Counted from the stretch's first letter, positions 41,261 to 58,474 are shown. The stretch is 64,000 nucleotides of DNA from Acidimicrobiia bacterium (GCA_036555105.1 DATBMA010000114.1:869-64868); one strand, 5' to 3'. Notes: generated by a model not told the origin, from the letters alone. Numbers and translations are program-made.

Positions 41261-41267
41261 GGGGGCT

Positions 41268-42104
41268 CTAGCCGGCCAGGCCGGTCCGCCACCTCTCTAC
41301 CGCGTCCACTTCATTGAAGGTGAACACGTGGAAGCCGGCGATGCCTAGTTCGGGGTCCACTGCCTGTGCCTCGGCCAGGCCGGATAGGATGGGATCGGGG
41401 TTGAAGCCCCCACCCTTGGCTAGCCCGCCTATCAGCCCCTGCTGCTTGGAGAGGTAGCGCATCGAGTCGCCGATCCCGATGCGGGTGGCGATCCGGGTCA
41501 GCTTTACCACTCCAACCGGGGCAGGAAGGCCAACCCGCACCGGCAGGGTGATGCCGCGGGAACGGGCTGCCCTGATCCAGCCCACGATCGCGTCGGGGTC
41601 GAAACAGAGCTGGGTGGCGACATAGGCGGCATATCGCTGCTTGGCCGCCAACGCCTCCCACAGCTTGTCCTCGGGGATATAGGCGTGACCCTCCGGGTAA
41701 CCGGGGACTCCAAGTGTGGAAGGGGCCCCTTCCAGACCGGTGAGGTCCTGGAGGAGCGAGAGCCCGTCTGGATATTCCCCTGGCTCCTGCGCATCCCCTC
41801 CCACCACGAACGCCCGGGTGATGCCGGCGGCCTGAACCCGCTCGACCACTTCGACCAGGTGGGCGTGATCGCGGGTCTGGCGGGCGGAGATGTGGGGGAC
41901 AGCATCCAATCCACGCCCTGCCAACCCCACCGCCAGGTCGATCGTGTGGTCGAGGCCCTTGCTCGGCGAGCAGGTGACCGTGACCTTCGCCGCTTGCGGT
42001 AGGTGTCCGACCTGCTCGTCGAGGTTGGAGAGGGGGATGACCTCATACAGGGGGTCCGCCAGCATCTGGCGGGCAGCAGCAGCCGCGGGCCCGGTGAGCT
42101 TCAT
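41268..42104 (-). CDS. metF: 5,10-methylenetetrahydrofolate reductase
   Basis: 278 aa of the MTHFR family (...VTCSPSKGLDHTIDL...GGDAQEPG...). Its ATG overlaps the stop of the upstream MttB-family gene (ATGA). Confidence 0.8.
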   Translation of the reverse strand: MKLTGPAAAAARQMLADPLYEVIPLSNLDEQVGHLPQAAKVTVTCSPSKGLDHTIDLAVGLAGRGLDAVPHISARQTRDHAHLVEVVERVQAAGITRAFVVGGDAQEPGEYPDGLSLLQDLTGLEGAPSTLGVPGYPEGHAYIPEDKLWEALAAKQRYAAYVATQLCFDPDAIVGWIRAARSRGITLPVRVGLPAPVGVVKLTRIATRIGIGDSMRYLSKQQGLIGGLAKGGGFNPDPILSGLAEAQAVDPELGIAGFHVFTFNEVDAVERWRTGLAG

Positions 42105-43627
42105 ACGTTGGAGTCCGGGAACGAGGCCTTGCGCTGCTCGACGAACTCGGTCAGCTCCAGCTCGGTGGCCGGATCCATCGGGGGCGCTTCGTAGTCCTCG
42201 AGGGTCTTCTTCCAAATCCGGTTGGCGCGGGCGGCGGCGTCGAGGGCTCCCTCCTCGCTCCATTGCTCGAAGCTGGAGTTGTCGGCCACCTGCGACCTCC
42301 AGAAGGCAGTCTCGAAGTTGGCGAGGGTGTGCTCGCTGCCCAGGTAGTGCTGGCCCGGCTCGTTGGCGAGGATGGCGGCTAGGGCCTGGCCGTTGTCGGA
42401 GAGGTCCACACCAGAGGCGAACGCCTCCCACCCTGCGCATTGATCGGCGTCCAGCACGAACTTCTCGTACCCGACGCAGAGCCCCCCTTCCAGCCAGCCG
42501 GCTGCATGGAGGACGAAGTTGACCCCGCCCAGCATCGTGGGCCCCATCGTGTTGGCGCTCTCGTAGGCGGCCTGAGCGTCCGGGATCTTCGATGCGCACA
42601 GTGCTCCACCCGACCTGAAGGGAACCCCGAGCCTCCTGGCCAGCTGGCCCATCACAAACAGCACCAGTGCCGGCTCGGGCGTCCCGAAGCTGGGGGCGCC
42701 GGTCTGCATCGACATCGAGGAGGCGAAGGAACCCAGCACGACCGGTGCCCCGGGCCGTACCAGCTGGGTGAAGGCCATGCCGGACAGCGCTTCGGCCAGG
42801 GTCTGGGTGGCGGTCCCGGCCACGGTCACCGGACTCATCGCCCCGGCGATGATGAACGGCGTGATGAGCGTCGCCTGATTGTTCTCGGCGTAGACCTTGG
42901 CCGCTCCGAGCATCGTGGAGTCCCAGACCAGCGGCGAGTTGGCGTTGATCAACGAGAGAATGACGGTGTTGGACTCGAGGAAGTCGGGGCCGAACAGGAT
43001 CTTGGCCATGTCGACCGTGTCTTGGGCGCGCAGCGGGTGGGTGACCGAGCCCATGAAGGGCTTGTCCGAGTACAGCATGTGGGCGAGGACCATGTCGTAG
43101 TGGCGCTTGTTGACCGGCAGGTCGACCGGCTCGCAAACGGTCCCACCCGAGTGGTGGATGTGGGGATTGGCGTAGGCGAGCTTCACGAAGTTGCGGAAGT
43201 CCTCGATGGTGCCGTAGCGACGCCCGCCGTCGAGATCGCGCACGAATGGGGAGCCGTAAGCAGGTGCGAACACGGTGTTGCGCCCCCCGATCTCGACCGA
43301 GCGAGCCGGGTTGCGAGCGCGCTGGATGAATGCAGCAGGAGCCGTGGCCTTGACCAGCTGGCGGCACAATCCACGGGGGAATCGAACCCGCTCACCGTCG
43401 ACATCCGCTCCGGCCTCCCGCCAGAGGTCGAGGGCCTCGGGTATGCCCCTGAACTCGATACCCACCTGCTCGAGGATGGTGTCGGCGTTCTCCTCGATCA
43501 GAGACAGCCCCTCCTCCGACAGCACTTCAAGGGGGGCAAGAGCGCGGGTGATGAATGGAACCGACTCGGCTATCTGGGCCGCCCGGGCTGCCATTCTTGC
43601 CTCCCGTCCCCTCCTGCGGTCGCTCAT
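42101..43627 (-). CDS. MttB-superfamily (COG5598) substrate:corrinoid methyltransferase, non-pyrrolysine type (quaternary-amine/glycine-betaine methyltransferase MtgB-like)
   Basis: 508 aa continuous ORF with no in-frame TAG. It resembles the trimethylamine methyltransferase MttB family over its full length. Its ATG overlaps the stop of the RamA-like gene (ATGA). Confidence 0.8.
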   Translation of the reverse strand: MSDRRRGREARMAARAAQIAESVPFITRALAPLEVLSEEGLSLIEENADTILEQVGIEFRGIPEALDLWREAGADVDGERVRFPRGLCRQLVKATAPAAFIQRARNPARSVEIGGRNTVFAPAYGSPFVRDLDGGRRYGTIEDFRNFVKLAYANPHIHHSGGTVCEPVDLPVNKRHYDMVLAHMLYSDKPFMGSVTHPLRAQDTVDMAKILFGPDFLESNTVILSLINANSPLVWDSTMLGAAKVYAENNQATLITPFIIAGAMSPVTVAGTATQTLAEALSGMAFTQLVRPGAPVVLGSFASSMSMQTGAPSFGTPEPALVLFVMGQLARRLGVPFRSGGALCASKIPDAQAAYESANTMGPTMLGGVNFVLHAAGWLEGGLCVGYEKFVLDADQCAGWEAFASGVDLSDNGQALAAILANEPGQHYLGSEHTLANFETAFWRSQVADNSSFEQWSEEGALDAAARANRIWKKTLEDYEAPPMDPATELELTEFVEQRKASFPDSNV

Positions 43628-45627
43628 CCGGTCCTCCCTCTGCGGCCCCTTCGGGCTCCCGTCATCTCCGCCCTGGCCGGCAGCTCGACTTCCGCCGCCA
43701 GATGGCGGTAATCGTCGATCCGGTGTGGGAATGCCATGGCGTTGACAAAGTGCTCCTGGAAGCGCGGTTCCACCGCCGTCTCGACCTTCTCAATCGTCCG
43801 CACCACCTGCTCGATCTCGGCCCGCTTGTCCCGGTTGAGCAGCGTCATCAACGCCCCGGTCCCGGCCGCATTGCCGGCGGCGCCCACCGCTTCGAGGTCG
43901 CAGTCGGGCACCAGCCCCAGCACCAGGGCGTAGAGAGGGTCGATGTGTGATCCAAAGGCGCCGGCCAGGCGGATCCGATCCACCGTGGTCGTCCCCATGT
44001 GGTCCATCAGGAGCTTGCAGCCGGCGTGGAGGGCAGCTTTGGCCAGCTGGATCGCGCGTACGTCGTTTTGGGTGATCCATATGTCGGGCTCCCCCTCCCA
44101 CAACAGGTAGGAGAAGGTTCGATCGTCACGACGGACTCGCGCTGTCCGGTCTGATTCAATGATCACACCGTCGGGGGAGATGATCCCGGCGAGGAAAAGC
44201 TCGGCGATGGCCTCGATGATCCCCGAGCCACAGATCCCGGTCGGCACCATGCTGAAGCCCGGCTCGTCCGACCAGTGGCGGTCGCCAATGGCTCTGATCC
44301 GCGGCTCCAGAGTCGTCCGATCGATGCGGACGCGCTCGATTGCACCCGGGGCTGCTCGCTGTCCCGATGAGATCTGGGCGCCCTCGAAGGCCGGCCCGGT
44401 AGGAGAGGAGGCGGCGAGGAGCCGGTGACGGTTCCCGAGCACGATCTCGGCATTGGTGCCGACATCCACGGCCAGAGTCAGCTCGTCCCGTCGATATGGC
44501 CCTTCTGCCAGCACCATCCCGGCCGCGTCCGCACCGACGTGGCCGGCGATGCACGGCAAGACGTAGATGCGGGCGGAAGGCAGCAGGTCTAGCGCGAGGT
44601 CGGCTGCCCGACGCTCCACCGCGAGGTCTGTCACCAGCGCGAAAGGGGCCCCGCCCAGCTCGATCGGATCGAATCCGAGGAAAAGGTGGTGCATGATCGG
44701 GTTGCCGACGGCAGTCATTGCCAGCACGTCATCCCGCTCCACTCCGGCCGCCTCGACCAACTCACCGATCAGGCCGTTGATGCAGTCCCGCACCGCCGCG
44801 GTCAGGTCGGCGGCTCCGCCCGGGTTCATCATCACGTAGGAGACCCGGCTCATGAGGTCCTCACCGAAGCGGATCTGCGGGTTCATGGCTCCGGCCGACG
44901 CCAGTACCTCGCCGGTGTGGAGGTCGGCCAGGTGCCCGGCCACCGTGGTGGACCCGATGTCGAAGGCGACCCCGTAGGCGTAGTCCTGGAAGCCGGGCCG
45001 GACCGAGACGATGACGCCGCCAGATCGCGCCAGAACAGGGGGATGCGGGTTGGAGACGGCGGCGGTCACCTTCCAGTCGCCGGCCCTGAGAGCAGCCTGC
45101 AGGCCGGGCAGGACGGCCGGGTCGACGTCGAGGCCGGTGAGGTCCCACTGCTGCTCGAGGGCGGCAAGCAGCCGCCTGAGGTCGGACGAAGGGTCTGCCA
45201 GGTCGGGCGCCGCCACCTCGACGTAGTGCTGGGTGATGACCGGGTCGATCTCGAGCTCGAGCGGCAGGGCTTCCTTCCTCACCACCTGGCGATGCACTTG
45301 GCTCTCGGCAGGCACATCCACCAGCAGGTCGCCTCGCAACCGGGCGGTGCAACCAAGGCGATGCCCATCTGCCAGCCCCCTGCGCTGGGCGAAGTCGAGC
45401 TCAACCGGGCCTATCGGCGACAGGTGGGCGGCTTCCGAGTGGATGCCGTGTTTCGGAAAGTCCCCTTCCATGACCTCCACCCGACAGCGGCCACATATGC
45501 CGCGGCCCCCGCACACCGAGTCCAGATCCACTCCCAGTTGGCGGGCGGCGTCGAGCAGGGTCGTTTCGTCGGGAAAGCGACCCCGCCGGCCGGAAGGGGT
45601 GAATACGAGCAAGCTCTCTCGGGTCAC
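43624..45627 (-). CDS. Corrinoid reductive activase (RamA/RACE type: N-terminal plant-type 2Fe-2S ferredoxin + ASKHA/DUF4445 ATPase)
   Basis: From the GTG (VTRESLLVFTPSG...): a ferredoxin motif CGGRGICGRCRV, then an ASKHA-fold region (FDIGSTTVAGHL...). Its GTG overlaps the stop of the MtgA-like gene (GTGA). Confidence 0.8.
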   Translation of the reverse strand: MTRESLLVFTPSGRRGRFPDETTLLDAARQLGVDLDSVCGGRGICGRCRVEVMEGDFPKHGIHSEAAHLSPIGPVELDFAQRRGLADGHRLGCTARLRGDLLVDVPAESQVHRQVVRKEALPLELEIDPVITQHYVEVAAPDLADPSSDLRRLLAALEQQWDLTGLDVDPAVLPGLQAALRAGDWKVTAAVSNPHPPVLARSGGVIVSVRPGFQDYAYGVAFDIGSTTVAGHLADLHTGEVLASAGAMNPQIRFGEDLMSRVSYVMMNPGGAADLTAAVRDCINGLIGELVEAAGVERDDVLAMTAVGNPIMHHLFLGFDPIELGGAPFALVTDLAVERRAADLALDLLPSARIYVLPCIAGHVGADAAGMVLAEGPYRRDELTLAVDVGTNAEIVLGNRHRLLAASSPTGPAFEGAQISSGQRAAPGAIERVRIDRTTLEPRIRAIGDRHWSDEPGFSMVPTGICGSGIIEAIAELFLAGIISPDGVIIESDRTARVRRDDRTFSYLLWEGEPDIWITQNDVRAIQLAKAALHAGCKLLMDHMGTTTVDRIRLAGAFGSHIDPLYALVLGLVPDCDLEAVGAAGNAAGTGALMTLLNRDKRAEIEQVVRTIEKVETAVEPRFQEHFVNAMAFPHRIDDYRHLAAEVELPARAEMTGARRGRRGRTG

Positions 45628-46526
45628 TGTCCGGCCACGGCCCGGCGGCGGGGGCGGTCCCGTCGCCCGCCTTCCGCCGGGCTTTCGACCCGGTACGCCC
45701 TGATCCAGCGGCCGCACTCGGGGTCATGACCGCTGAGGACATCCGCAGCCAGGACCGCTTGGCGGATCTCCGGCTCGATCGGGTTGGTGATGGCCGAGGT
45801 CATCCCGGCGGCGATTGCCATCGCCAGGAAGGTGGCGTTGATGCCGGCTCGATTGGGAAGGCCGAAGCTGACGTTCGAGGCCCCGCAGGTGGTGTTGACC
45901 CCGAGCTCCTCGCGGAGGCGGCGGACCAGGTGGAAGACCTGGCGACCAGCCGTTGCCATTGCCCCCACCGGCATGAGGAGGGGATCCACCACGACGTCCT
46001 CCTTGGGGATGCCGTGATCGGCGGCTGCCGAAATGATCTTGCGCGCCACCTCGAAGCGGACATCGGGATCCTCCGATATACCCGTCTCGTCGTTGGTGAT
46101 CGCAACCACCGCCGCCCCATGCCGTGCCACCAGCGGCAGCACCGCTTCGATCCTCTCGTCCTCGCCGGTGACGGAGTTGACGAGGGCCTTGCCTTGGTAG
46201 ACGGAGAGCCCGGCCTCCAGGGCTTCCACGATGGAGGAGTCGATTGACAGCGGCACGTCGGTGAGGCTTTGCACCAGCTTGACCGTCTCGGCCAGGATCG
46301 CCGGCTCGTCGGCCAGCGGGATCCCGGCGTTGACGTCGAGCATCTGGGCGCCGGCCTCGACCTGGCGAGCAACATCGGCGATGACCGTCGAGAAGTCACC
46401 CTCGGCCATCTCGGCGGCCAGCTTCTTGCGGCCGGTGGGGTTTATGCGCTCCCCGATGATCACGAAGGGCCGCTCGAACCCGATCACCACCTCTCTGGTC
46501 CCGGAGGAAACGACGGTGTTAACCAT
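45624..46526 (-). CDS. Pterin-binding methyltransferase (methylcorrinoid:tetrahydrofolate methyltransferase, MtgA/MtrH/MeTr-like)
   Basis: 300 aa from MVNTVVSSG. The signature FVIIGERINPTG is that of the pterin-binding (DHPS-like) domain found in methionine synthase, MtrH and AcsE. The 70 upstream codons in the track ORF (MRPRDFETSRPQ...) are a translation of repeat R9 and are excluded. Confidence 0.8.
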   Translation of the reverse strand: MVNTVVSSGTREVVIGFERPFVIIGERINPTGRKKLAAEMAEGDFSTVIADVARQVEAGAQMLDVNAGIPLADEPAILAETVKLVQSLTDVPLSIDSSIVEALEAGLSVYQGKALVNSVTGEDERIEAVLPLVARHGAAVVAITNDETGISEDPDVRFEVARKIISAAADHGIPKEDVVVDPLLMPVGAMATAGRQVFHLVRRLREELGVNTTCGASNVSFGLPNRAGINATFLAMAIAAGMTSAITNPIEPEIRQAVLAADVLSGHDPECGRWIRAYRVESPAEGGRRDRPRRRAVAGQ

Positions 46527-46529
46527 CTG

Positions 46530-46608
46530 CGGTCTCGAGGTCTCGAAGTCTCGAGGTCGCATGGTGAGACCCCGCGACTGTGAGACCGTGCGATCGTGGG
46601 ACCTCACA
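46530..46608. repeat. GTCTCAC-family intergenic element R9 (5' leader of the MtgA-like/RamA/MttB/MetF transcript)
   Basis: ggtctcga-ggtctcga-agtctcga-ggtcgca-tggtgagac-cccgcgac-tgtgagac-cgtgcgat-cgtgggac-ctcacac. Confidence 0.8.
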
Positions 46609-46900
46609 CATATGCGCCTCCGGTTCGCACCAGGCCGGCCAGGGCGTCGTCGGTGAACTCGGCCTCCAGCCGGGCGGCTTCGGCCGAGGCCACTGTCTCC
46701 AGATCGGCATCGCAGGGACGGGTCACTCGCCTCCACTGAGCCAGGTAATCGTCGGTCCCGATGAGCCCCACCCTGGTGGCGGCGGCATCTATCGCCTCCT
46801 GGAACCGCTCCGAGAGGACCGCCTTGCTGGTCTGACGGCCCTCTCTGGCCGTCACCTGGGCGGGGATGTCCCGCCAGTAGATGACGGTGAGCTCAGCCAT
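46604..46900 (-). CDS. Small hypothetical protein co-transcribed with the corrinoid module
   Basis: 98 aa from MAELTVIYWRDIPAQV.... Its start overlaps the DUF1638-like stop by 8 nt. I cannot assign a family with confidence. Confidence 0.4.
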   Translation of the reverse strand: MAELTVIYWRDIPAQVTAREGRQTSKAVLSERFQEAIDAAATRVGLIGTDDYLAQWRRVTRPCDADLETVASAEAARLEAEFTDDALAGLVRTGGAYV

Positions 46901-47540
46901 CGTTTGCTCCCGCGAAGCGGGCCAGGGAGGTTTCCAGGTCTCCCATCCCGGTGGCGACCCGCTCGTAGCCGAGGCCCAGGTAGGCAGCCGCCTCCTGCCC
47001 TCGGCGATCGAGCTCCGGATCGTCGGTCTGGGCAAGGAATACCAGGCGCAGGTAGTTGCCGAAGTATTGGGGGAGGAGCTCAGGATGGCGGTCGAGGCCG
47101 AGGCCCCTGACCACGAACAGGTCGAAGTGCCGGCAGAGGAAGTCGGTCAGATAGAACGTGGCGGGCTCGGCATCGTGCATCGCCAGGAATTCGGCCCCTC
47201 CGGCGAAGAACTGATAGCAGTGGGCGCCGGGGATCCTTTCGATTCCACGCTCGGCCAGCAGCCGGTCGAGGTCCCCCCCGGTGCCGCAGTCGGCGTAACC
47301 GACGAAGACCCGCTGGTAGCGGCCTTCCGCCCGATCGAGGCGCTGCCTGACGGCGTCGGTGATGAGTCCCGGTGTGTTGTGAAGCTTGGCCGGGAGGCAC
47401 TCGATGATCAGATGATCCCAGCCATTGAGGCGACGCAACTCGATCAGTTCCCGGGCGATGGCGCCACAGGCGATCACCAGTATCTCGGCTTCCAGCTCCG
47501 GTGCGAAGGTCGCTTCCTGATCGAAGAGAGCGACGGCCAT
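46893..47540 (-). CDS. DUF1638-like protein (conserved accessory gene of MttB/corrinoid gene clusters)
   Basis: 215 aa from MAVALFDQE.... Conserved blocks ILVIACGAIARE, VGYADCGTGG and GAHCYQF. It lies 1 nt downstream of the corrinoid protein stop. Confidence 0.55.
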   Translation of the reverse strand: MAVALFDQEATFAPELEAEILVIACGAIARELIELRRLNGWDHLIIECLPAKLHNTPGLITDAVRQRLDRAEGRYQRVFVGYADCGTGGDLDRLLAERGIERIPGAHCYQFFAGGAEFLAMHDAEPATFYLTDFLCRHFDLFVVRGLGLDRHPELLPQYFGNYLRLVFLAQTDDPELDRRGQEAAAYLGLGYERVATGMGDLETSLARFAGANDG

Positions 47541-47541
47541 G

Positions 47542-48243
47542 TCAGTCCTCGCCGGAGACGAGGCGTCTGGCCTTGACCAGTGCTTGTGCGGTCTCGGCGG
47601 CGATGGCGGCATCGCGGCAATAGGCATCTGCCCCCACCGCTTGGGCGAACTCCTCGTTCAGGGGCGCGCCGCCTACGAGGACGATGTAGTCATCTCTGAT
47701 GCCCTTCTCCTTGAGGGTGTCGATGACCACTTTCATGTACGGCATCGTCGTGGTCAGCAAAGCCGACATGCCGAGGATGTCGGGCTTGTGCTCCTCGAGG
47801 GCTGCCAGGTACTTCTCGACCGGGTTGTTGATGCCGAGGTCGATCACTTCGAACCCGGCTCCTTCCAGCATCATCGCCACGAGGTTCTTGCCGATGTCGT
47901 GGATGTCGCCCTTGACGGTCCCGATCACGACTTTCCCGACCGGCTCGGCCCCGGTTTCGGCCAGGAGCGGGCGCAGGATCTCCATGGCGGCCTTCATGGC
48001 GTTGGCTGCCATCAGCACCTCCGGCACGAAGAGGATGCCGTCTCGGAAGTCGATGCCCACGATACGCATCCCTTCCACCAGAGCGTCATTGAGCACACGG
48101 TCCGGCGGCCAGCCCCGCTGCAACAGGATGTTGGTGCCCTGGACCAGCTCTTCCTTCAGCCCGTCGTAGAGGTCGTCATGCATCTGCTCGACCAACTCGG
48201 GGTCGGCGAGGGATGAGAGATCAAGTTCTTGATCGTCTGGCAT
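47542..48243 (-). CDS. Corrinoid (cobalamin-binding) protein, MtgC/MttC-like
   Basis: B12-binding_2 helical cap followed by a Rossmann B12 domain with the DxHxxG motif (GDIHDIGKNLV). Confidence 0.85.
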   Translation of the reverse strand: MPDDQELDLSSLADPELVEQMHDDLYDGLKEELVQGTNILLQRGWPPDRVLNDALVEGMRIVGIDFRDGILFVPEVLMAANAMKAAMEILRPLLAETGAEPVGKVVIGTVKGDIHDIGKNLVAMMLEGAGFEVIDLGINNPVEKYLAALEEHKPDILGMSALLTTTMPYMKVVIDTLKEKGIRDDYIVLVGGAPLNEEFAQAVGADAYCRDAAIAAETAQALVKARRLVSGED

Positions 48244-48244
48244 C

Positions 48245-49060
48245 TTGTTCGATCCTCATGGGTTCCGTATGATGGAACTGTATCGGATAGTGGAACAGGA
48301 TACTCCAGTGGTGCAAACGGTGTCGAGCGTGCATTCCATCGAACGGGCCTTCGCCATCCTGGATGCCCTGCGATCCGGCCCGGCCCGCGTGACCGATCTG
48401 GCGAGAAGAGTCGACCTGCCCAAGAGCACCGTCGCCAGGCTGCTGGCAACCCTGCAGTCGGTCGGGGCGGTCGAGCGTGACCCCGATGGTGTCCGCTACC
48501 GCGCGTGCCGCGAGTGGGCGCAATCGGCCGGTCCTGGCGGGGGCATCGAGACCATCGTGGCGATGGCCCGCCCGAGCTTGGTGGGATTGGTGGAACGGCT
48601 GGGCGAGTCGGCCGGGCTCTCGGTGCCGGACGGCTACCTGGCCCACTACGTCGCCCAGGTCGACTCGGGCAACCCTGTGCAGGTGCGGGACTGGACGGGG
48701 GAGAGGATCCCCATGCACGCGGTCTCGTCGGGCCTGGTGTTCTTGGCCGATCTCCCGCGGGAGGCGCTGTCCGACTTCCTGCGGCATCCGCTGAGCGAGT
48801 TCACGTCCCACACGGTGACCTCTCCTGCCCAGCTGAGAAGGCGTCTGCAGCAGGTGCGGGCCGACGGCTACGCCTGGGTGGAAGAAGAGTTCGCCGAGGG
48901 GATCAACTCGGTGGCGGCCCCGGTGAGGAGGGTTGACGGGAGAACCCTCGCCGCCTTGCACGTGCATGGCCCTTCTTACCGTTTCCCCGGCAGGCGAGCC
49001 CGAGCCGCATCCAACCAGGTTGTGGCGGCCGCCGATGCACTGTCTGCCCAGCTGACCTGA
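48245..49060 (+). CDS. IclR-family transcriptional regulator
   Basis: N-terminal wHTH (SIERAFAILDALRSGPARVTDLARRVDLPKSTVARLL) and a C-terminal IclR effector domain. It is divergent from the corrinoid operon. An alternative start is MMELY at 48269. Confidence 0.8.
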   Translation: MFDPHGFRMMELYRIVEQDTPVVQTVSSVHSIERAFAILDALRSGPARVTDLARRVDLPKSTVARLLATLQSVGAVERDPDGVRYRACREWAQSAGPGGGIETIVAMARPSLVGLVERLGESAGLSVPDGYLAHYVAQVDSGNPVQVRDWTGERIPMHAVSSGLVFLADLPREALSDFLRHPLSEFTSHTVTSPAQLRRRLQQVRADGYAWVEEEFAEGINSVAAPVRRVDGRTLAALHVHGPSYRFPGRRARAASNQVVAAADALSAQLT

Positions 49061-49062: not shown

Positions 49063-49407
49063 TCAGGCGGGGGCCAACTCCGCTCGCTGACCGAAGAAGA
49101 TGCCGGGGACCGCCATCGCCACCACTGCGAGCTGGATCATCCAGACCGTGGTGGGAAGGAGCAGGGCGGTACCGAACAGCACGAATCCCCCCACTCTTGC
49201 CCTGAATCCCTTGGTCCCGCGCCATCGCATCAGGCCGAGCAGGTAGAGGATCCCGCCGGCCACCGCCGCCACCGATAGCAAGAAGATCGGGTGTATGCCG
49301 GAGATCGGAGTGACGTTGAAGTAGGCGATCACGGCGCCGACCATCACCCACATTCCGAACAGGATCGCCAGCCCGGCACCGGCCATGCCGAGGACGCCGG
49401 CAACCAT
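49063..49407 (-). CDS. Small polytopic membrane protein, function unknown
   Basis: Three predicted TM helices from [12 protein letters not shown].... It is divergent from betB. The longer track ORF is probably an over-extension. Confidence 0.4.
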
Positions 49408-49477
49408 GCGCAAGCCTTGTTTGGGCACGGCGGGCGAGCGTACCTGGGCAGCCGGACCTCTACACTCCTCCGGCCCC

Positions 49478-50932
49478 ATGGACACCATTCGCCTCTTCAT
49501 TGACGGTGCCCTGACCGATGCCACCTCCGCCGAGGTTTTCGACAACGTCAACCCGGCCACCGGCATGGTCATCTCGCAGGTTCAGCAGGCAAGCGACGCC
49601 GACGTCGACCGAGCAGTGGTTTCCGCTGCGGCGGCCTTCGAAGAGTGGAGCCAGTGGTCGGGGACCCAAAGGGGACGGGTGCTCAATCAGGCGGGCCGCC
49701 TCCTCCGGGAGCGGAATCAGGAACTGGCCGAGCTCGAGGTCATCGACACCGGCAAGCCGATCGGCGAGGCGATGTCAGTGGACATCCTCTCCGGGGCGGA
49801 CTGCATCGAGTACTACGCCGGCCTGGCTCCGGCGGTGCATGGTGAGCATTTCGACCTTGGTGGGTCTTGGGCCTACACGAGGCGGGAGCCGCTCGGGGTC
49901 TGTGTTGGGATCGGAGCGTGGAACTACCCGATCCAGATCGCATGCTGGAAGTCGGCGCCCGCCCTTGCATGCGGCAACACGATGGTGTTCAAGCCCGCAG
50001 AGCTGACCCCGACCACAGCTCTCAAGCTGGCCGAGATCTACTACGAGGCGGGTGTGCCGGCCGGTGCCTTCAACGTCGTCCAGGGAGATGAGCGGACCGG
50101 CCGAGCCCTCACCCTCCATCCGCGGGTCGCCAAGGTGTCGCTGACGGGCGAGGTAGGCACCGGGGTGAAGGTGATGGAGCAAGCGGCTGCCACCCTCAAG
50201 CACATCACCCTCGAGCTTGGCGGCAAGTCCCCTCTCATCGTCTTCGAGGACGCCGACCTCGACAATGCCGTGTCTGCCGCTCTGATGGGCAACTTCTACA
50301 CCCAGGGCGAGATCTGCTCGAACGGGACCCGCGTGTTCGTGCACTCCTCGATCCACGATCAGTTCGTCGAGCGGCTGGCGGCGAGGACCGAGAAGATCAG
50401 GGTCGGGGACCCGATGGACCCTGAGACCCATGCCGGGGCGTTGATCTCGGCTAGCCACCTCGAGAAGGTGATGGGTTACATCGAGCAAGGGAAAGAGGAG
50501 GGAGCCCGGCTGGTGACCGGCGGTTCCCGCCCGTCCGATCCGGAGCTGGCGGACGGCTTCTTCGTGCTGCCGACGATCTTCGACGAGTGCCGCGATGACA
50601 TGACGATCGTCCAGGAGGAGATATTCGGCCCGGTCATGGCGGTTCTCACGTTCGAGAGCGAGGACGAGGTAGTGGATCGGGCCAACGCCACCGAATATGG
50701 GCTGGCGGCTGGGGTGTTCACCAACGATCTGCAGCGCGCCCATCGAGTTGTGGCCCGCCTCGAAGCGGGGACGATCTGGATCAACAACTACAACCTCACT
50801 CCTGTCGAGATCCCGTTCGGTGGCTACAAAAGGTCAGGGATGGGGCGGGAGAACAGCCTGACCACCATCAACCACTACACGCAATTGAAGACAGTCTTCG
50901 TCGAAATGGGGGATGTGGAGGCTCCGTACTGA
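49478..50932 (+). CDS. betB: Betaine-aldehyde dehydrogenase
   Basis: Aligns block-for-block with E. coli BetB ([34 protein letters not shown]..., [11 protein letters not shown]..., EEIFGPVM..., [11 protein letters not shown]). Start at [10 protein letters not shown]. Confidence 0.9.
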
Positions 50933-51762
50933 TGGAGCAGTTCCTGGCGGGCCGGGTGGCGGTGGTAACCGGGGGAGCGTCGGGCATGGGCAGGGCGATG
51001 GCTCTCGCCTTCGCCTCCGCCGGGGCCGATGTCGCCATCGGGTCCTTGCTGGCCGAGGCTGCCGCGGCCCGGCCCGATGGCGAGCTCGGCTTCCTGCCGG
51101 GACAGGACCAGCTCAGTCAGACCGGGGCCGAGATCGAAGCCCATGGGGTCCGAAGCCTGGCAATGGGCCTCGACGTCACCTCGGATCAGTCGATGGACGA
51201 GTTCTTCGCTGCTGTCGAGTCCAAGCTGGGGCCGGTCGACATTCTTGCCAATGCCGCCGGCATCACCGCCGAGCAAACCATCACCGGCCACCCGGACCCT
51301 CTATGGCACAAGGTCATCGACGTCAACCTCAACGGGACCTACAGGGCGATCCGCCGTGCCCTGCCGGGCATGCTCGAGCGCAATTGGGGGCGTGTCATCA
51401 ACATCGCCTCTACTGCTGCCACCGTCGGCGCGGCTACTTCCGGCGCTTACTGCGCTTCCAAGGCCGGGGTGGTCGGCCTGACCAGGGCGGTGGCGCTGGA
51501 AGGCGCCCCGCACGGAGTCACCTGCAATGCCATCTCGCCCACCTGGGTCGACACCGCCTTCGCCCGCGACTGGATGAGCGAGATCGCCGAGCACGAGCAC
51601 CGCACCGGCGACGAGTACGTGGCAGACGTCAAGAAGTCGAACCCCCAGGGCCGGTTGATCGCCCCCTCCGAGATCGGGGCACTGGCCCTGTTCCTGTGCC
51701 GGGAGGAGGCTCTCGGGATCACGATGGAGGACCTCCGGGTCTCGGCCGGCAGCCTCTGGTGA
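50932..51762 (+). CDS. SDR-family NAD(P)-dependent oxidoreductase
   Basis: TGGASGMG Rossmann motif and a YxxxK catalytic motif (YCASK). Its ATG overlaps the betB stop (TGATG). Confidence 0.85.
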   Translation: MEQFLAGRVAVVTGGASGMGRAMALAFASAGADVAIGSLLAEAAAARPDGELGFLPGQDQLSQTGAEIEAHGVRSLAMGLDVTSDQSMDEFFAAVESKLGPVDILANAAGITAEQTITGHPDPLWHKVIDVNLNGTYRAIRRALPGMLERNWGRVINIASTAATVGAATSGAYCASKAGVVGLTRAVALEGAPHGVTCNAISPTWVDTAFARDWMSEIAEHEHRTGDEYVADVKKSNPQGRLIAPSEIGALALFLCREEALGITMEDLRVSAGSLW

Positions 51763-51765
51763 ACA

Positions 51766-51804
51766 GTCTCGAAGTCGCACAGTCGCACAGTCGCACGGTG
51801 AGAC
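51766..51804. repeat. GTCTCAC-family intergenic element R10
   Basis: agtctcga-agtcgcac-agtcgcac-agtcgcac-ggtgagac, immediately after the SDR stop. Confidence 0.75.
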
Positions 51805-51810
51805 TGAAAG

Positions 51811-51836
51811 GAAGGCCCCCGTTGCCGGGGGCCTTC
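51811..51836. terminator. Bidirectional intrinsic terminator hairpin
   Basis: gaaggcccccg-ttgc-cgggggccttc, between the convergent SDR gene and the betaine-binding-protein gene. Confidence 0.8.
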
Positions 51837-51862
51837 GGGTTGTCAATCGGCTGGAGTTCAGA

Positions 51863-52798: not shown

Positions 52799-52865
52799 CC
52801 GTTAGCTCCTCCTCGAAAACAGCCAGTCCAGGCACTGGAATTGGCCTGCGGTCTACATTACCGAC

Positions 52866-53906
52866 ATGGTGACCGCCCTTGGGGAGGCCAGCCCGTCCAG
52901 CCTCTTGGTGGACCACCTTTGGAAAGTGTTCGGCGACAGCCCTGGCAAGGCAATCGAGATGGCGGACAAAGGCCTCTCCCGGTCGGAGATCCTGGCCGCC
53001 ACCGGCTGCACGGTGGGAGTTCGGGACATCTCCTTCGACGTCTCCCCGGGAGAAACGTTCGTCGTCATGGGCCTCTCCGGAAGCGGCAAGTCCACACTGA
53101 TCAGATGCGCCGCCAGGCTGATAGAGCCCACCAAAGGGAGGGTCATCATCGACGGCGCCGATCTTCTCACCATGAGTGATGACGACCTCCGTCAGGTCCG
53201 ACGAAACAAGCTGTCGATGGTGTTCCAACATTTCGGGCTGTTTCCCCACCGTCGGGTCATCGACAACGTCGCGTTTGGCCTCGAAGTTCAGGGCATGTCG
53301 AAGTCCGAGAGGCACGAACGTGCCGAAGCTGTCATCAAGGTCGTGGGGCTCGAAGGCTGGGAAACCCACTATCCCCAGCAGCTCTCAGGTGGGATGCAGC
53401 AGCGCGTCGGCCTCGCCAGGGCGCTGGCCCTCGATCCACAGGTGCTGTTCTTCGATGAGCCGTTCTCGGCCTTGGATCCGCTGATCAGACGGGACATGCA
53501 GGACGAGCTGATTCGACTTCAGGCGGAGCTGCACTGCACGATCGTCTTCATCACCCATGACTTCGCCGAGGCGCTGAAGCTGGGCGACCGGATCGCCATC
53601 ATGAAGGATGGTGCATTCGATCAGATTGGCACTCCCGTCGAGATCGTCACCAAGCCCGCCACCGACTACGTTCGCGAGTTCACCAAAGATGTTCCGAAGG
53701 CCAAGGTGATCACAGCCTCTGCTGTGATCGATGCGGGAGTGGTGGCCGCACCGAATGCTCCCCGCCTGCACATGAACACACCGGTGGAGCAGTTGGTTCC
53801 GCACCTCCTTCACAGTGGCGACGCGGTGGCGATCTTCGACGACGCCGGCCGCATCCTCGGCGCGGTCGACCGGGAGAGCGTGGCCCGGGTCCTGACGGAG
53901 GGTTGA
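52866..53906 (+). CDS. Glycine betaine/proline ABC transporter ATP-binding protein (ProV/OpuAA) with a C-terminal CBS-like region
   Basis: Walker A GLSGSGKST, signature LSGGMQQRVGLARAL, and a Walker B region. The N-terminal extension is typical of ProV. Confidence 0.9.
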   Translation: MVTALGEASPSSLLVDHLWKVFGDSPGKAIEMADKGLSRSEILAATGCTVGVRDISFDVSPGETFVVMGLSGSGKSTLIRCAARLIEPTKGRVIIDGADLLTMSDDDLRQVRRNKLSMVFQHFGLFPHRRVIDNVAFGLEVQGMSKSERHERAEAVIKVVGLEGWETHYPQQLSGGMQQRVGLARALALDPQVLFFDEPFSALDPLIRRDMQDELIRLQAELHCTIVFITHDFAEALKLGDRIAIMKDGAFDQIGTPVEIVTKPATDYVREFTKDVPKAKVITASAVIDAGVVAAPNAPRLHMNTPVEQLVPHLLHSGDAVAIFDDAGRILGAVDRESVARVLTEG

Positions 53907-55852
53907 TGGCGACAGCCACTGCCACCCCAGCCGCCCTGCCACTCAGGCGAAGCCGGACCTGGCTGTGGGTCGTGGTCGTCATTCTGTTGTTGGTGGGTGT
54001 CCAGCTCGCCTTCTCGCGAACCTCCGGATTCCCCACCGGATGGAGGCTCGGGATCGAGAACACCATCGACCAGATTCCGGGTTGGCTGCGGTCCAACCGA
54101 CGCACCCACCCGATGTTCGTCTACTTTCTCCAGCCCCTCAGTGCTGGAATCAACGGGGGGCTCGAGCTGGTCGAGTCTGTTCTCAAGGCCATTCCATGGT
54201 TCGTCTTCTGCGCCATCGCCGCCTTCATCCTTCTTCGGGCCGGCCGGGTTTGGGCGGCGCTCCTGGCGATAGTTGGTGTCCTCTACTTCGGTGTGGTGGG
54301 CCTGTGGGAGGAGGGCTTGGAGACGCTGGCGTTGATGGGTGTCGCGGTCGCCATCGCGCTCCTGATCGGGATTCCCTTAGGGATATGGGCGGCTTTCAAC
54401 CGGAGGGTCGAGCGGGCGCTACGACCGATCCTCGACAGCATGCAGGTGCTGCCGGCTTTCGTCTATTTGATACCGGTCGTCCTGCTCTTTGGCATTGCCC
54501 GGGTGCCGGCGACCATCGCCACCGTGATCTTTGCGCTCGCACCGGCTGTACGGCTCACGACCCTCGGGATCAAGCAAGTGCCGCAAGCGGTGCTGGAAGC
54601 CGCCGAGATGATGGGGACCACACGCCGCCAGAAGCTCTTCAAGGTCCAGATCCCGATCGCGATGCCAACCATCCTGGCCGCTGTCAACCAGACGATCATG
54701 CTGGCACTCGGCATTGTGATCATCGCTTCGTTGATCGGTGCGGGGGGCCTCGGCACGCAGGTCTTGAACTCCCTCCAGAGGTTCCAGGTGGGCCAGGCAT
54801 TCGAGGCGGGCATAGCTGTGGTCGTGATGGCGATCTTGCTGGACCGGCTGAGCCGTACCTTCGTGGAGCGGCCCGAGCCCGGGCAAATCCCTTGGTATCG
54901 AAGCCGGAGGGTTCTGTGGATCGGGCTGGGGATCATCGTCCTGCTGGCCTTGGCGGGGCTCGTCGCCGGAGTCCGCGAGTTCCCTGACCAGTGGCGGGTC
55001 TCGTTCGCGCGCCCGATCGACTCCGCGGTCGACTGGGCGCAGAACAACCTTTACCTGATCGGGAATACCGGCCTCGGGACCAAGGCACTCAACGAGTTCT
55101 TGAACGTGTCGATCCTCAACCCGTTGCGTGACCTGCTTACCTTTCTGGCCTGGCCCGTTCTGATCCTCTTCACGGGATTCATCTGCTGGAAGGCGGGGGG
55201 CGGGTTGCTAGCCGTCTTCGCCATGATCTCCCTATTCGTAATCGGGGTCCTCGGAATGTGGGAGCTTGCTTTGGACACTCTCACCCAAGTGCTCGTGGCA
55301 GTGGTCCTTGCCCTGGCCATCGCCATCCCAGTCGGCGTCTGGTCAGCTCGGAGCAACAGGGTGAGAACGCTGCTTACGCCACTCCTTGACACGCTTCAGA
55401 CGATTCCGAGCTTCGTCTTTCTCGTTCCGGTGATCATGCTCTTCAGCGCCGGACGGGTGCCGGGGATCATTGCCAGCGTGTTGTATGCAATCCCTCCCGG
55501 TATCCGGCTGACGGACCTCGGCCTGAGAAGCGTTCCTGCCGAGACCCTCGAGGCTGCCGAATGCTTTGGGTCAACGCCTAGGCAGATGCTGTGGAAGGTC
55601 CAAGTCCCACTGGCGATGCCGACCATCATGGCGGGGGTCAACCAGGTCGTCATGCTGGCCTTGTCGATGGTCGTGGTCGGTGGCTTGGTCGGAGGGGGTG
55701 GCCTGGGATTCGAAAGCGTGCGTGCCCTCACTCGGGGTGAGACGGCTCTCGGCGTCAAGGCCGGCTTGGCGATCGTCCTCATGGCGATGATCCTCGATCG
55801 GTTGACCCAGGCGTGGGCAGCCAGGATGCAGCCGACGCCGGCGGCGGCCTGA
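53903..55852 (+). CDS. Glycine betaine ABC transporter permease (fused tandem ProW/OpuAB domains)
   Basis: 649 aa with two homologous permease halves, each carrying an EAA-like loop (EAAEMMGTTRRQ and EAAECFGSTPRQ). Confidence 0.85.
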   Translation: MMATATATPAALPLRRSRTWLWVVVVILLLVGVQLAFSRTSGFPTGWRLGIENTIDQIPGWLRSNRRTHPMFVYFLQPLSAGINGGLELVESVLKAIPWFVFCAIAAFILLRAGRVWAALLAIVGVLYFGVVGLWEEGLETLALMGVAVAIALLIGIPLGIWAAFNRRVERALRPILDSMQVLPAFVYLIPVVLLFGIARVPATIATVIFALAPAVRLTTLGIKQVPQAVLEAAEMMGTTRRQKLFKVQIPIAMPTILAAVNQTIMLALGIVIIASLIGAGGLGTQVLNSLQRFQVGQAFEAGIAVVVMAILLDRLSRTFVERPEPGQIPWYRSRRVLWIGLGIIVLLALAGLVAGVREFPDQWRVSFARPIDSAVDWAQNNLYLIGNTGLGTKALNEFLNVSILNPLRDLLTFLAWPVLILFTGFICWKAGGGLLAVFAMISLFVIGVLGMWELALDTLTQVLVAVVLALAIAIPVGVWSARSNRVRTLLTPLLDTLQTIPSFVFLVPVIMLFSAGRVPGIIASVLYAIPPGIRLTDLGLRSVPAETLEAAECFGSTPRQMLWKVQVPLAMPTIMAGVNQVVMLALSMVVVGGLVGGGGLGFESVRALTRGETALGVKAGLAIVLMAMILDRLTQAWAARMQPTPAAA

Positions 55853-55916
55853 CTGCCGAAGCACGGGAAGTCGCCGGTGAGGGCTTGTTAGCCTCGCCGC
55901 CCGTGAGAGGACTCAG

Positions 55917-58421
55917 GTGAGCGATCTTCCCCAGAGCGTGCGGGTCGTCGTCATCGGGGCCGGCATCAACGGCAACTCGCTGGTCGGCCACCTGGCCGAG
56001 CTCGGCTGGAAGGACATCCTCCAGATCGACAAGGGGCCGTTGCCCAACCCGGGCGGGTCCACAGGCCATGCCTCCAACTTCATCTTCCCGGTCGACCACT
56101 CCAAGGAGATGGCGATGCTGACGCTCGACAGCCAGCGTCAGTACGCCGACATGGGGGTCAACACGGTTTCGGGCGGGATCGAGGTCGCCCGCACTGCGGA
56201 GCGCATGGAAGAGCTGCGCCGCCGTATGACCAGCGCCACCTCTTGGGGGATCGAGGCCGAGCTGATCTCGCCCAGCCAGGTCAAGGAGCTGGTGCCGTTC
56301 ATCAACCAGGACATCGTGCTCGGCGGCTTCTACACACCAAGCGTCTCCGTGGTCGACTCATTGCGGGCCGGGACCCTGTTCAGGGAACGGGCCCAGGCCC
56401 TGGAGGCCCTCACGGTCTCGCCGAACACCGAGGTGCTCGGCATCGAGGTCGAGCGGGGCCGGGTCAGAGCGGTGGTCACCGATCGTGGCCGTGTGGAGGC
56501 CGAGTACGTGATCATCGCCTGCGGGGTTTGGAGCCCGCGGCTGGCTGAAATGGCCGGCGCCACCATCCCGCTGACCCCGGCGGTCCATCAGATGATCGAC
56601 GTCGGGCCGATCCCGATCCTGCAGGAGACCGGGGGCGAGATCGCATTCCCGATCGTTCGTGACATGGACACCTTCATGTACGAACGGCAGACGGCGGGAT
56701 CGATGGAGGTGGGGTCGTACGCCCACCGCCCGATCTTCCACGATCCCGACGACATCCCCTCCCTCAAGGAGGCCCGCCTCTCGCCGACCGAGCTCCCTTT
56801 CACTGCCGATGACTTCGACCCGCAGATGGAGGACGCGCTCGAGCTGATGGGCGACATATTGGGCGGGGCCGAGATCCGATACGCCATCAACGGCCTGCTC
56901 TCGCTCACCCCGGACGGGATGCCCCTCCTGGGGGAGACGGTGGAGGTCCGCAACCTGTGGTCGGCGTCGGCCGTGTGGATCAAAGAGGGCCCGGGAGTCG
57001 GTCGGATGTTGGCCGAGTGGATGACCGACGGATACCCCGAGCTTGATCCGCACTCCTCCGACATCGCCCGCTTCTACGACTACGGCCGGACCATGCATCA
57101 CATCCGGGCGCGATGCTCGGAGCACTTCAACAAGACCTACGGGATCATCCACCCCCGAGAGCAGTGGGCCACTGACCGCAACTTCCGGCTGGCCCCTTTC
57201 CATGCCCGAACCCAGGCATTGGGCGCCGTCTACTTCCAAGCAGGTGGCTGGGAGCGTCCTCACTGGTACGAGTCGAACGCCGGCCTCGTCTCCGACTACG
57301 GCGTCGAGGATCGGCCCCACGAGTGGGACGCCCGCTGGTGGTCGCCGATCATCAACGCCGAGCATCTGGCCATGCGGGAGCGGGTGGGGATGATCGACCT
57401 CTCTCCTTTCGTCATCTTCGATCTGACCGGGCCCGGGGTCTTCGACTACGTGCAACGGATGGCGGTCAACTCACTCGACGTGGCGGTCGGGCGGTCGGTC
57501 TACACGCCGCTGCTGACGCCTCAGGGAGGGTTCAAGGCCGACCTCACGATCATGCGGCTGGGAGAGGAGCACTTCCGGGTGGTGACCGGGGCCTTCGACG
57601 GCCCCCGTGACAAGCACTGGTTCCGCAAGCACCTCCCGGAAGACGGGTCCGTGCAGTTCGTCGACAACACCGGCGCCATCTGCACCATCGGCGTTTGGGG
57701 GCCGAAGGCACGCAACTTCCTGCAATCACTCACCGGCGACGACCTCTCCGATGATGGCTTCCCATACGGGTCGGTGCGCACGGTCGGCTTCGGGCCCCTC
57801 ATCACCCGCATGTTCCGCATCTCATATGTCGGTGAGCTCGGGTGGGAGATCTACTGCCCGATGGAAGGGGGGCTCGCCCTCTGGGACATGCTGTGGGAGG
57901 CCGGAGTGGGCCATGACCTGGTGGCGGTCGGAGCGGGCGTCTACGGCACCACCGGTCGGATGGAGAAGGGCTACCGCCTATTCGGGTCCGAGCTCGACAG
58001 TGAGTACACCCCGGTCGAGGCCGGCCTGGCCCGACCAAGGGTGAAGTCGGCCGACTTCGTCGGCAAGGAGGCGTACCTGGCGGCGCGGAAGGAGGAGCCG
58101 GCTGCGGTTCTCTGCACGCTGACAGTCGAGGACCACACCTCGGCGGCGGGAATCCCTCGTTACATGACCGGGCGGGAGCCGGTCCTCACGCTCGACGGCA
58201 AGCGGATCGTCGACCGCAAGGACAGGCCCTCTTACGTGACCAGCGCCGGCTCGGGCCCCTCGGTCGGCAAGTACCTGTTGATGGCCTACCTGCCGCCCGA
58301 GCAGGCGGTGGTTGGCACCGAGCTGCGGGTCATGTACATGAACGAGCAGTTCCCGGTCCAGGTGGCGGTGGCAGGCAGCACCCCGTTGTTCGACCCCGAC
58401 GACCGGCGGATGAAGGCTTAG
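55917..58421 (+). CDS. FAD-dependent oxidoreductase with a C-terminal GcvT (aminomethyltransferase) domain: dimethylglycine/sarcosine dehydrogenase family
   Basis: 834 aa. An N-terminal DAO domain (VVVIGAGINGNSLVGHLAELG) is followed by a GCV_T folate-binding domain and a GCV_T_C domain. The architecture is that of DMGDH/SarDH/DMG oxidase. Confidence 0.85.
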   Translation: MSDLPQSVRVVVIGAGINGNSLVGHLAELGWKDILQIDKGPLPNPGGSTGHASNFIFPVDHSKEMAMLTLDSQRQYADMGVNTVSGGIEVARTAERMEELRRRMTSATSWGIEAELISPSQVKELVPFINQDIVLGGFYTPSVSVVDSLRAGTLFRERAQALEALTVSPNTEVLGIEVERGRVRAVVTDRGRVEAEYVIIACGVWSPRLAEMAGATIPLTPAVHQMIDVGPIPILQETGGEIAFPIVRDMDTFMYERQTAGSMEVGSYAHRPIFHDPDDIPSLKEARLSPTELPFTADDFDPQMEDALELMGDILGGAEIRYAINGLLSLTPDGMPLLGETVEVRNLWSASAVWIKEGPGVGRMLAEWMTDGYPELDPHSSDIARFYDYGRTMHHIRARCSEHFNKTYGIIHPREQWATDRNFRLAPFHARTQALGAVYFQAGGWERPHWYESNAGLVSDYGVEDRPHEWDARWWSPIINAEHLAMRERVGMIDLSPFVIFDLTGPGVFDYVQRMAVNSLDVAVGRSVYTPLLTPQGGFKADLTIMRLGEEHFRVVTGAFDGPRDKHWFRKHLPEDGSVQFVDNTGAICTIGVWGPKARNFLQSLTGDDLSDDGFPYGSVRTVGFGPLITRMFRISYVGELGWEIYCPMEGGLALWDMLWEAGVGHDLVAVGAGVYGTTGRMEKGYRLFGSELDSEYTPVEAGLARPRVKSADFVGKEAYLAARKEEPAAVLCTLTVEDHTSAAGIPRYMTGREPVLTLDGKRIVDRKDRPSYVTSAGSGPSVGKYLLMAYLPPEQAVVGTELRVMYMNEQFPVQVAVAGSTPLFDPDDRRMKA

Positions 58422-58423
58422 GA

Positions 58424-58474
58424 CGGTCTCGCGGTCTCACGGTCTCACTGTGAGGCCTCGAAACCATGAGACCG
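58424..58474. repeat. GTCTCAC-family intergenic element R11
   Basis: cggtctcg-cggtctcac-ggtctcac-tgtgaggcc-tcgaaacc-atgagaccgg. The termini are inverted (cggtctc...gagaccg). Confidence 0.75.

Follow-up and report, generated by a model that had tools for sequence, protein, structure and literature searches.

A compact seven-gene operon predicted to serve cobalamin-dependent demethylation of quaternary amines, most probably glycine betaine, in an Acidimicrobiia bacterium

Cobalamin-dependent demethylation of glycine betaine was established by genetics and proteomics in the aerobe Ruegeria pomeroyi (Mausz et al., PNAS 2025, PMC12478193). Growth of this bacterium on glycine betaine induces MtgB1/2 (pfam06253), MtgC, MtgD, MetF2, a RamA-like protein and a DUF1638 protein, and mutants in mtgC and mtgD can no longer grow on glycine betaine and become methionine auxotrophs, MtgC and MtgD being common to demethylation and a split methionine synthase (PMC12478193). 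In other bacteria the mtg genes are clustered or organised in operons, with mtgBCDE colocalised in Sinorhizobium meliloti, and Actinomycetota contribute 5% of the oceanic mtgC reads (PMC12478193). A delta-mtgB1 delta-gbcAB mutant of Phaeobacter inhibens is unable to grow on glycine betaine (2025 preprint), and in that species methionine cannot be made without these modules (Price et al. 2018, PMC5764234). Here we analyse a 64,000-nucleotide (nt) stretch of DNA (hereafter, the window) from an Acidimicrobiia bacterium (GCA_036555105.1, DATBMA010000114.1:869-64868), a metagenome-assembled genome (MAG) of an uncultured soil member of the Actinomycetota, in which seven minus-strand genes quite probably encode an MtgBCD-type, cobalamin-dependent quaternary-amine demethylase of aerobes that is most probably specific for glycine betaine and wired to a split methionine synthase.

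Seven open reading frames (ORFs) are packed within positions 41268-48243 of the window, and profile searches of the window translations against Pfam and NCBIfam place each of them in its expected family above the Pfam cut-off. These genes, the ligand motif of the corrinoid protein and the gene that converges on the operon are as follows:

47542..48243, minus strand: mtgC, corrinoid (cobalamin-binding) protein, 233 aa, PF02607 cap and PF02310
47890..47907, minus strand: DIHDIG, the DxHxxG lower-ligand histidine motif of MtgC (aa 113-118), located by a regular expression on the translation
46893..47540, minus strand: DUF1638 protein, presumed corrinoid reactivation accessory, 215 aa, PF07796 at 99 bits
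46604..46900, minus strand: PF13769 ('Virulence_fact') small protein, 98 aa, 78 bits
45624..46607, minus strand: mtgD, pterin-binding methyltransferase acting between methyl-tetrahydrofolate (methyl-THF) and the corrinoid, 327 aa from GTG 46607, PF00809
43624..45627, minus strand: RACo/RamA-type ATP-dependent reductive activase, 667 aa, N-terminal 2Fe-2S ferredoxin domain and ASKHA domain
42101..43627, minus strand: mtgB, non-pyrrolysine MttB-family substrate:corrinoid methyltransferase, 508 aa, PF06253
41268..42104, minus strand: metF2-like methylenetetrahydrofolate reductase (MTHFR), 278 aa, PF02219
40373..41260, plus strand: mtgE-like stand-alone homocysteine S-methyltransferase, 295 aa, PF02574

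A preliminary description of the stretch had read the seven minus-strand ORFs as a complete substrate:corrinoid:THF methyl-transfer chain, and every component of such a chain is found in this one compact cluster. The profile searches gave matches to PF06253, PF02310/PF02607, PF00809, the RACo domains and PF07796; the inventory of the preliminary description missed the convergent mtgE gene (40373-41260), which lies 7 nt past the metF2 end of the operon.

The operon genes are tightly packed, with overlaps at most junctions, not all. The ATGA and GTGA overlaps that had been said to join the genes can be read from the sequence at the activase/MtgB and MtgB/MTHFR junctions (ATGA) and at the MtgD/activase junction (GTGA), whereas the MtgC and DUF1638 genes are separated by a 1-nt spacer and the DUF1638 and PF13769 genes overlap by 8 nt. 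At the PF13769/MtgD junction, a GTGA overlap holds only if MtgD starts at GTG 46607, 7 nt downstream of a GGAGG; the alternative starts ATG 46562 and ATG 46526 would leave a gap of 41-77 nt after the PF13769 gene, and the JGI call on an identical locus takes ATG 46526 (77-nt gap). This locus recurs on contigs from JGI (three) and Logan (one), and the JGI starts for both MtgB and MtgD differ from those supported by homologues. All operon ORFs are intact, with a GC content of 0.66-0.68 and a GC content at third codon positions (GC3) of 0.78-0.84, like the neighbouring genes. A promoter and terminator scan gave no convincing terminators or promoters inside the operon (1 promoter-like site vs. 1.0 expected by chance), and scanning the window end to end with Rfam gave no matches, hence no cobalamin riboswitch. 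The seven genes are presumably transcribed as a single unit.

The MtgB ORF covers positions 1-500 of the 500-position PF06253 model at 754 bits without an in-frame stop, and its Leu343 aligns with pyrrolysine 334 of Methanosarcina barkeri MttB, in agreement with the earlier assignment of this 508-aa ORF to the MttB superfamily without an amber codon. A pyrrolysine-dependent MttB was rejected as an identity for this protein (no in-frame UAG; TIGR02369 239 bits vs. a cut-off of 525); the M. barkeri enzyme (7XCL) belongs to the same family, PF06253, yet matches at 94 bits only. The window MtgB is 65% identical to PDB 4YYC, which we take to be an S. meliloti protein, and 42% identical to MtgB of Desulfitobacterium hafniense (2QNE), whereas an exact-sequence look-up of the window protein returned no match. 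MtgC is a stand-alone cap and B12-binding protein (PF02310 103 bits, PF02607 64 bits) with the DxHxxG motif noted in the preliminary description; its best NCBIfam match is MtgC_2 (212 bits, under that model's cut-off), and it is 79-89% identical to its orthologues across 50 or more loci. MtgD matches PF00809 at 108 bits and NF005719 at 361 bits (cut-off 259), and the GERINPTG motif noted earlier occupies aa 52-59.

The activase joins a Fer2 domain to RACo_linker, Raco_middle and RACo_C_ter domains (301 bits), and its N-terminal cysteines are Cys39, Cys45, Cys48 and Cys93. Its closest PDB match is RACo of Carboxydothermus hydrogenoformans (3ZYY, 329 bits over residues 6-636), with which it shares the full-length architecture of N-terminal 2Fe-2S domain, linker, middle domain and ASKHA ATPase; the partner of the window activase would be a methyltransferase corrinoid protein, not the corrinoid iron-sulfur protein served by RACo. 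Of the earlier call of a RamA-type 2Fe-2S/ASKHA activase, the domain content stands and the subfamily does not. RamA was rejected in favour of a RACo/AcsV-like protein on its score (TIGR04270 114 bits vs. 500) and on the Fe-S domain, which is an N-terminal 2Fe-2S domain, the C-terminal 4Fe-4S domain of the RamA of methanogens being absent; the score against the AcsV model of NCBIfam is 389 bits, with a cut-off of 800. The shorter activase called by JGI (615 aa from an internal ATG; locus L084, 6464-8311), for which the precomputed Pfam list has no Fer2, was likewise rejected, since only one of the four 2Fe-2S cysteines would then remain.

Relatives of this MtgB are widespread: the protein matches at least 8000 clusters at 90% identity (E<=1e-30), and relatives occur in over 579 species genomes of GTDB. 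Among the representatives of GTDB species, the best reach no more than 79% MtgB identity; these are MAGs of Gaiellales, Thermoleophilia and 'Actinomycetes', followed by Chloroflexota, Acidobacteriota and Proteobacteria, and the orthologue group spans several phyla at 67-80% identity. Comparison of gene order by tblastn on 82 related loci shows that 23 have the identical seven-gene order (Actinomycetota, Chloroflexota and Acidobacteriota), among them the cultured Gaiella occulta, an Acidimicrobiia MAG and MAGs of Gaiellales, Chloroflexota, Polarisedimenticolia and Sulfotelmatobacter. In a further 7 loci DUF1638 is the sole missing gene, and 18 carry the five-gene cassette mtgC-DUF1638-PF13769-mtgD-activase in another arrangement, typically divergent from mtgB in Gammaproteobacteria. 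Gaiella occulta is a strict aerobe. The novelty implied in the preliminary description does not survive this conservation and the 2025 publication of the aerobic system, which also outdates its statement that non-pyrrolysine MttB proteins demethylate mostly in anaerobes.

With the MtgB cluster of S. meliloti, the similarity reaches the level of orthology. There, the gene for the MtgB homologue (65.6% identical) is divergent to a cobalamin-binding protein gene (mtgC) and a DUF1638 gene, the neighbouring operon comprises PF13769, an MTHFR-C-domain protein, MTHFR, mtgD, a hypothetical gene and an ASKHA gene, and bmt (mtgE) is located about 6 kb away. In this locus (L088 8446-10121), MTHFR and the separate 'MTHFR C-terminal domain' protein form a MetF/MetV-like pair, in contrast to the single S6MTHFR-like enzyme of the window; the methyl-THF-oxidising partner thus appears to differ between lineages. 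The L088 record (CP090106.1, from PLSDB) is labelled 'S. meliloti plasmid pSymB' yet measures 3.72 Mb and may be a mislabelled replicon. The pSymB of S. meliloti strain 1021 is about 1.7 Mb, under half of this length, and 3.72 Mb is nearer the size of the chromosome. We assume that the MtgB gene of this cluster is the 4YYC gene and that the cluster is the colocalised mtgBCDE cluster of the published work (PMC12478193).

Compared to the aerobic MtgBCD(E) system of R. pomeroyi, P. inhibens and S. meliloti, the window has the same parts, namely MtgB, MtgC, MtgD, MetF2, a Fer2 and DUF4445/RACo activase, DUF1638 and MtgE; metF2 is linked to mtgD as in the published system, here as the last gene of the operon, and genes for downstream betaine catabolism adjoin the operon too. 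The differences concern the host, which is an Acidimicrobiia MAG and not a proteobacterium, the arrangement, which is scattered in R. pomeroyi but gathered here in one seven-gene operon with mtgE abutting, and the PF13769 gene, which is part of the window cassette and not of the published MtgBCD model. The system as such has been described in aerobes (PMC12478193), so that the window adds a different phylum and the most compact form and leaves the concept unchanged.

On the other side of mtgC, a divergent regulator gene is followed by a glycine betaine/choline catabolic island spanning 49385-61971, the key genes of which lie within 14 kb of the operon:

48269..49060, plus strand: IclR-family regulator, divergent from mtgC, PF09339 and PF01614, ATG 48269 (alternative TTG 48245)
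49385..50932, plus strand: BetB betaine-aldehyde dehydrogenase, NF009725 801 bits vs. 593, TIGR01804 698 vs. 669
50932..51762, plus strand: short-chain dehydrogenase, PF00106 and PF13561
51863..52798, minus strand: OpuAC/ProX-type betaine/choline substrate-binding protein, PF04069 at 152 bits
52866..53906, plus strand: ProV-type ATPase
53903..55852, plus strand: fused double ProW/ChoW-type permease
55917..58421, plus strand: dimethylglycine/sarcosine dehydrogenase-type enzyme (DAO, FAO_M and GCV_T in its Pfam architecture), 834 aa
58524..59294, plus strand: electron-transfer flavoprotein (ETF) beta, and 59291..60253, plus strand: ETF alpha (PF01012, PF00766)
60274..61971, plus strand: formate-tetrahydrofolate ligase, PF01268 at 819 bits, ATG 60274 with GAGGAG upstream

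The ProV/ProW region (52866..55852) scores 359 bits vs. 327 for TIGR01186, 502 vs. 363 for TIGR03416 and 465 vs. 439 for NF008196. The start codons of mtgC and iclR are about 25 bp apart in the window (with ATG 48269) and 38 bp apart in L001, the closest relative, a gap so short that the promoters would overlap coding sequence or the transcripts would be leaderless; this intergenic region showed neither an inverted repeat nor an operator. Of the 82 related loci, 33 have an IclR gene next to the operon, and the one here probably regulates the operon.

We propose the following route. MtgB would bind glycine betaine, and the Co(I) corrinoid on MtgC would take one N-methyl group, yielding dimethylglycine and CH3-Co(III)-MtgC, from which MtgD would transfer the methyl group to tetrahydrofolate. 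The MetF2-like MTHFR would then oxidise CH3-THF to CH2-THF and feed C1 oxidation, with formate-tetrahydrofolate ligase encoded nearby, while the dimethylglycine dehydrogenase (DMGDH)-like enzyme and ETF would strip the remaining methyl groups. Corrinoid that has become Co(II) would be re-reduced by the RACo-type activase through its 2Fe-2S and ASKHA ATPase domains, assisted by the DUF1638 protein and perhaps by the PF13769 protein. With MtgD running in reverse and MtgE serving as the homocysteine module, the same MtgC/MtgD core would also make methionine. An oxygen-tolerant, THF-linked demethylation route had been proposed in the preliminary description, and the proposal matches the results in R. 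pomeroyi (PMC12478193), the genomic setting being that of an aerobe.

The substrate of MtgB, which had been held unreadable from the sequence, is suggested by the genomic context. In D. hafniense MtgB, glycine betaine is contacted by Tyr97, Arg312, His348 and Phe356, and the F356L substitution raises the Km several hundred-fold (Picking et al., PMC13080624). Three of these four residues are kept in the window MtgB (Y124, R338 and H374). The conserved carboxylate-binding pair Arg338/His374 implies an acidic quaternary amine as the substrate, and the context of BetB, the transporter, the DMGDH-like enzyme and ETF points to glycine betaine specifically, which we regard as the likely substrate; that it is another betaine-like amine is much less probable.

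Several observations weigh against this reading. Phe356 is replaced by Gly382 in the window MtgB, as it is in 4YYC and in five orthologues (all of those checked), and the four-residue glycine-betaine-binding motif of the D. hafniense enzyme is incomplete in the window protein; the only nearby aromatic residue that could replace it is Trp378, one helical turn from Gly382, which is a possible stand-in. Aerobes often hold several MttB paralogues of unassigned specificity (PMC12478193), and the link to the genetically validated MtgB1 (R. pomeroyi SPO2108, P. inhibens PGA1_RS07270) is indirect, running via the S. meliloti homologue. The locus is known here from its sequence alone, and the view of the genome is confined to these 64 kb.

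One alternative is that the same machinery demethylates another amine (proline betaine, choline, carnitine, gamma-butyrobetaine or trimethylamine) and that glycine betaine is handled elsewhere, which we consider rather unlikely. Besides the change at Phe356, it is favoured by an identity of 42% to the one glycine betaine enzyme that has both biochemical proof and a structure, by the diversification of substrates within the family (MtpB, MtcB, MtyB, MthB; PMC12478193, PMC13080624) and by the transporter, which also scores as a choline ABC permease. Adjacent genes for pyrroline-5-carboxylate reductase and proline dehydrogenase (window 9242-10959, plus strand), though about 31 kb off the operon, lend weak support to proline betaine. 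However, the adjoining BetB makes glycine betaine and the DMGDH-type enzyme consumes its product dimethylglycine, no glycine betaine monooxygenase (gbcAB) was seen in the 64-kb window, the same orthologue group sits in the S. meliloti mtgBCDE cluster, and the retention of Arg338 and His374 speaks against non-acidic substrates such as trimethylamine and choline.

Comparison of the window to the anaerobic MtgB/MtgC/MtgA systems of D. hafniense and Methanolobus vulcani (2QNE/9YCE; PMC13080624) places its MtgB in the same TIM-barrel MttB-superfamily fold family (380 bits), with leucine at the pyrrolysine position, the equivalents of Tyr97, Arg312 and His348, and an identical three-component layout that includes a corrinoid protein and an activase. 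Apart from the 42% identity and the glycine in place of Phe356, the difference lies in the fate of the methyl group, which goes to acetogenesis, respiration or coenzyme M in the anaerobic systems, whereas in the window it would go to THF for oxidation in an aerobe. The aerobic MtgC proteins are also phylogenetically distinct from the anaerobic ones (PMC12478193).

A second alternative is that the cluster is mainly an anabolic split methionine synthase, made up of MtgC, MtgD, MtgE, the activase and DUF1638, and that the MttB homologue only feeds betaine methyl groups to methionine and serves no catabolism. All five domain types of the split methionine synthase of P. inhibens (Price 2018), i.e., the homocysteine methyltransferase, pterin-binding, B12-binding, RamA-like and DUF1638 types, are found within window positions 40373-48243. 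MtgE matches PF02574 at 217 bits, carries the GNCG and GACCG zinc-ligand cysteines and has as its best PDB match the homocysteine domain of Thermotoga maritima MetH (1Q7M, 185 bits, compared to 72 bits for betaine-homocysteine methyltransferase); its score for NF005718 'bmt' (332.7 bits) is just under the cut-off of 338. The same convergent arrangement is present in L001, with an MtgE that is 80% identical. MtgE beside the operon implies that the locus is also a complete split methionine synthase, and an anabolic role is further favoured by the requirement for these modules in P. inhibens and by the absence of metH from many mtgBCD genomes (PMC12478193). Conversely, mtgE is on the opposite strand and next to the operon in only 3 of the 82 related loci, while mtgB and metF2 are inside the operon, and on glycine betaine R. 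pomeroyi MtgE goes down as MtgBCD go up (PMC12478193). An MTHFR of the CH3-THF-oxidising type, together with DMGDH, ETF and formate-tetrahydrofolate ligase in the island, indicates bulk C1 oxidation. Catabolic and anabolic roles are compatible. We consider a mainly anabolic cluster improbable, and a dual function of the MtgC/MtgD core would be part of the demethylase reading.

The operon MTHFR matches PF02219 at 34 bits (cut-off 24), and its best PDB match is S6MTHFR of Sphingobium lignivorans SYK-6 (7XG9) at 107 bits, compared to 26-32 bits for canonical MTHFRs. S6MTHFR is a type-4 MTHFR that oxidises the CH3-THF made by THF-dependent demethylases, and the type-4 signature (Leu48-Pro49, Arg78, Cys219 of helix alpha-8 and the loop Pro268-Phe269-Gly-Gly-Leu) blocks NADH binding and favours oxidation (PMC11868366). 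Both MTHFRs are placed beside a CH3-THF-producing demethylase. At the signature positions, however, the operon enzyme has S-P, Q, I and T-F-N-E-V, i.e., L48S, R78Q, C219I and P268T with Pro49 and Phe269 retained, which tells against an oxidative enzyme; on these motifs membership of type 4 was rejected despite the best PDB match. The oxidative direction is therefore inferred from the genomic context alone.

The last alternative, that the operon is of an anaerobic type active only in anoxia or microoxia, or a recently transferred non-functional relic, has a negligible probability: although Co(I) corrinoids are oxygen-sensitive and 67-80% identity across phyla suggests horizontal transfer, the ORFs are all intact with native GC and GC3 values, the operon includes a dedicated reductive activase and is kept in Gaiella occulta, and aerobic function has been demonstrated in Ruegeria (PMC12478193) and Phaeobacter (2025 preprint).

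Two accessory proteins of the cassette stand out by their conservation. The predicted structure of the DUF1638 protein (AlphaFold2 model, mean confidence pLDDT 87.7) has two alpha/beta lobes, and no solved homologue was found by sequence search; its sequence is 100% identical to that of a DUF1638 protein (P0121) annotated by NCBI in an Acidimicrobiia MAG. Across homologues as distant as 36% identity, Cys25, His54, His107 and Cys108 never vary and the conservation of Cys85 is at least 90%, with Cys48 invariant among close homologues, and the conserved cysteines and histidines lie at or just past strand ends in the model. This arrangement suggests that the set may form a metal or Fe-S site, perhaps relevant to corrinoid reactivation. 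The PF13769 protein has a confident predicted fold (pLDDT 95.6) that is without a solved structural relative. Its gene lies between mtgC and mtgD in 50 of 53 loci (45 of 53 for the DUF1638 gene), is retained in 7 loci whose cassette has lost DUF1638, and in S. meliloti is the first gene of the MTHFR-mtgD-activase operon (L088 10114-10416). A full-text literature search found no publication naming PF13769, and the word 'virulence' occurs neither in PMC12478193 nor in the 2025 P. inhibens preprint. Tentatively, and a little short of an even chance, the PF13769 protein may be a so far overlooked core subunit of the cassette for corrinoid methyl transfer and reactivation in aerobes, and together with DUF1638 it could enable Co(I) enzymes to work and be repaired in oxygen-respiring cells.

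Elsewhere in the window, the form-II CoxL, luciferase-like monooxygenase, ETF and betaine genes reported earlier as neighbours of the operon are all present. The form-II CoxS/CoxL/CoxM cluster occupies 16457-24418, with a CoxD-like AAA protein, a CoxE-like VWA protein, XdhC and then the luciferase-like monooxygenase, and its CoxL bears the form-II motif AYRGAGR; Gaiella occulta (L003), too, has a comparable cluster of molybdenum hydroxylase genes close to its operon. At 12195-14492 (plus strand), a 765-aa membrane protein with a nitrate-reductase-gamma-like domain, a 4Fe-4S dicluster and two CCG domains resembles, as judged from its predicted domains, ETF:quinone oxidoreductases of the EtfD type, and a related Fer4/CCG gene follows ETF in the Gaiella locus. 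Genes for biotin carboxylase/biotin carboxyl carrier protein (methylcrotonyl-CoA carboxylase alpha-like) and carboxyltransferase (3468-7044, minus strand) are unrelated to the operon.

A specialist aware of the 2025 work would expect a locus such as this one. Its value is that it extends a known system, described in marine Proteobacteria, to Actinomycetota, Chloroflexota and Acidobacteriota of soil and fresh water, as a self-contained operon linked to a regulator, and draws attention to two conserved proteins, DUF1638 and PF13769. The compact cassette of seven or eight genes suits heterologous reconstitution. This distribution implies that terrestrial aerobes may have a large, unappreciated demand for cobalamin and a corresponding route of osmolyte turnover.

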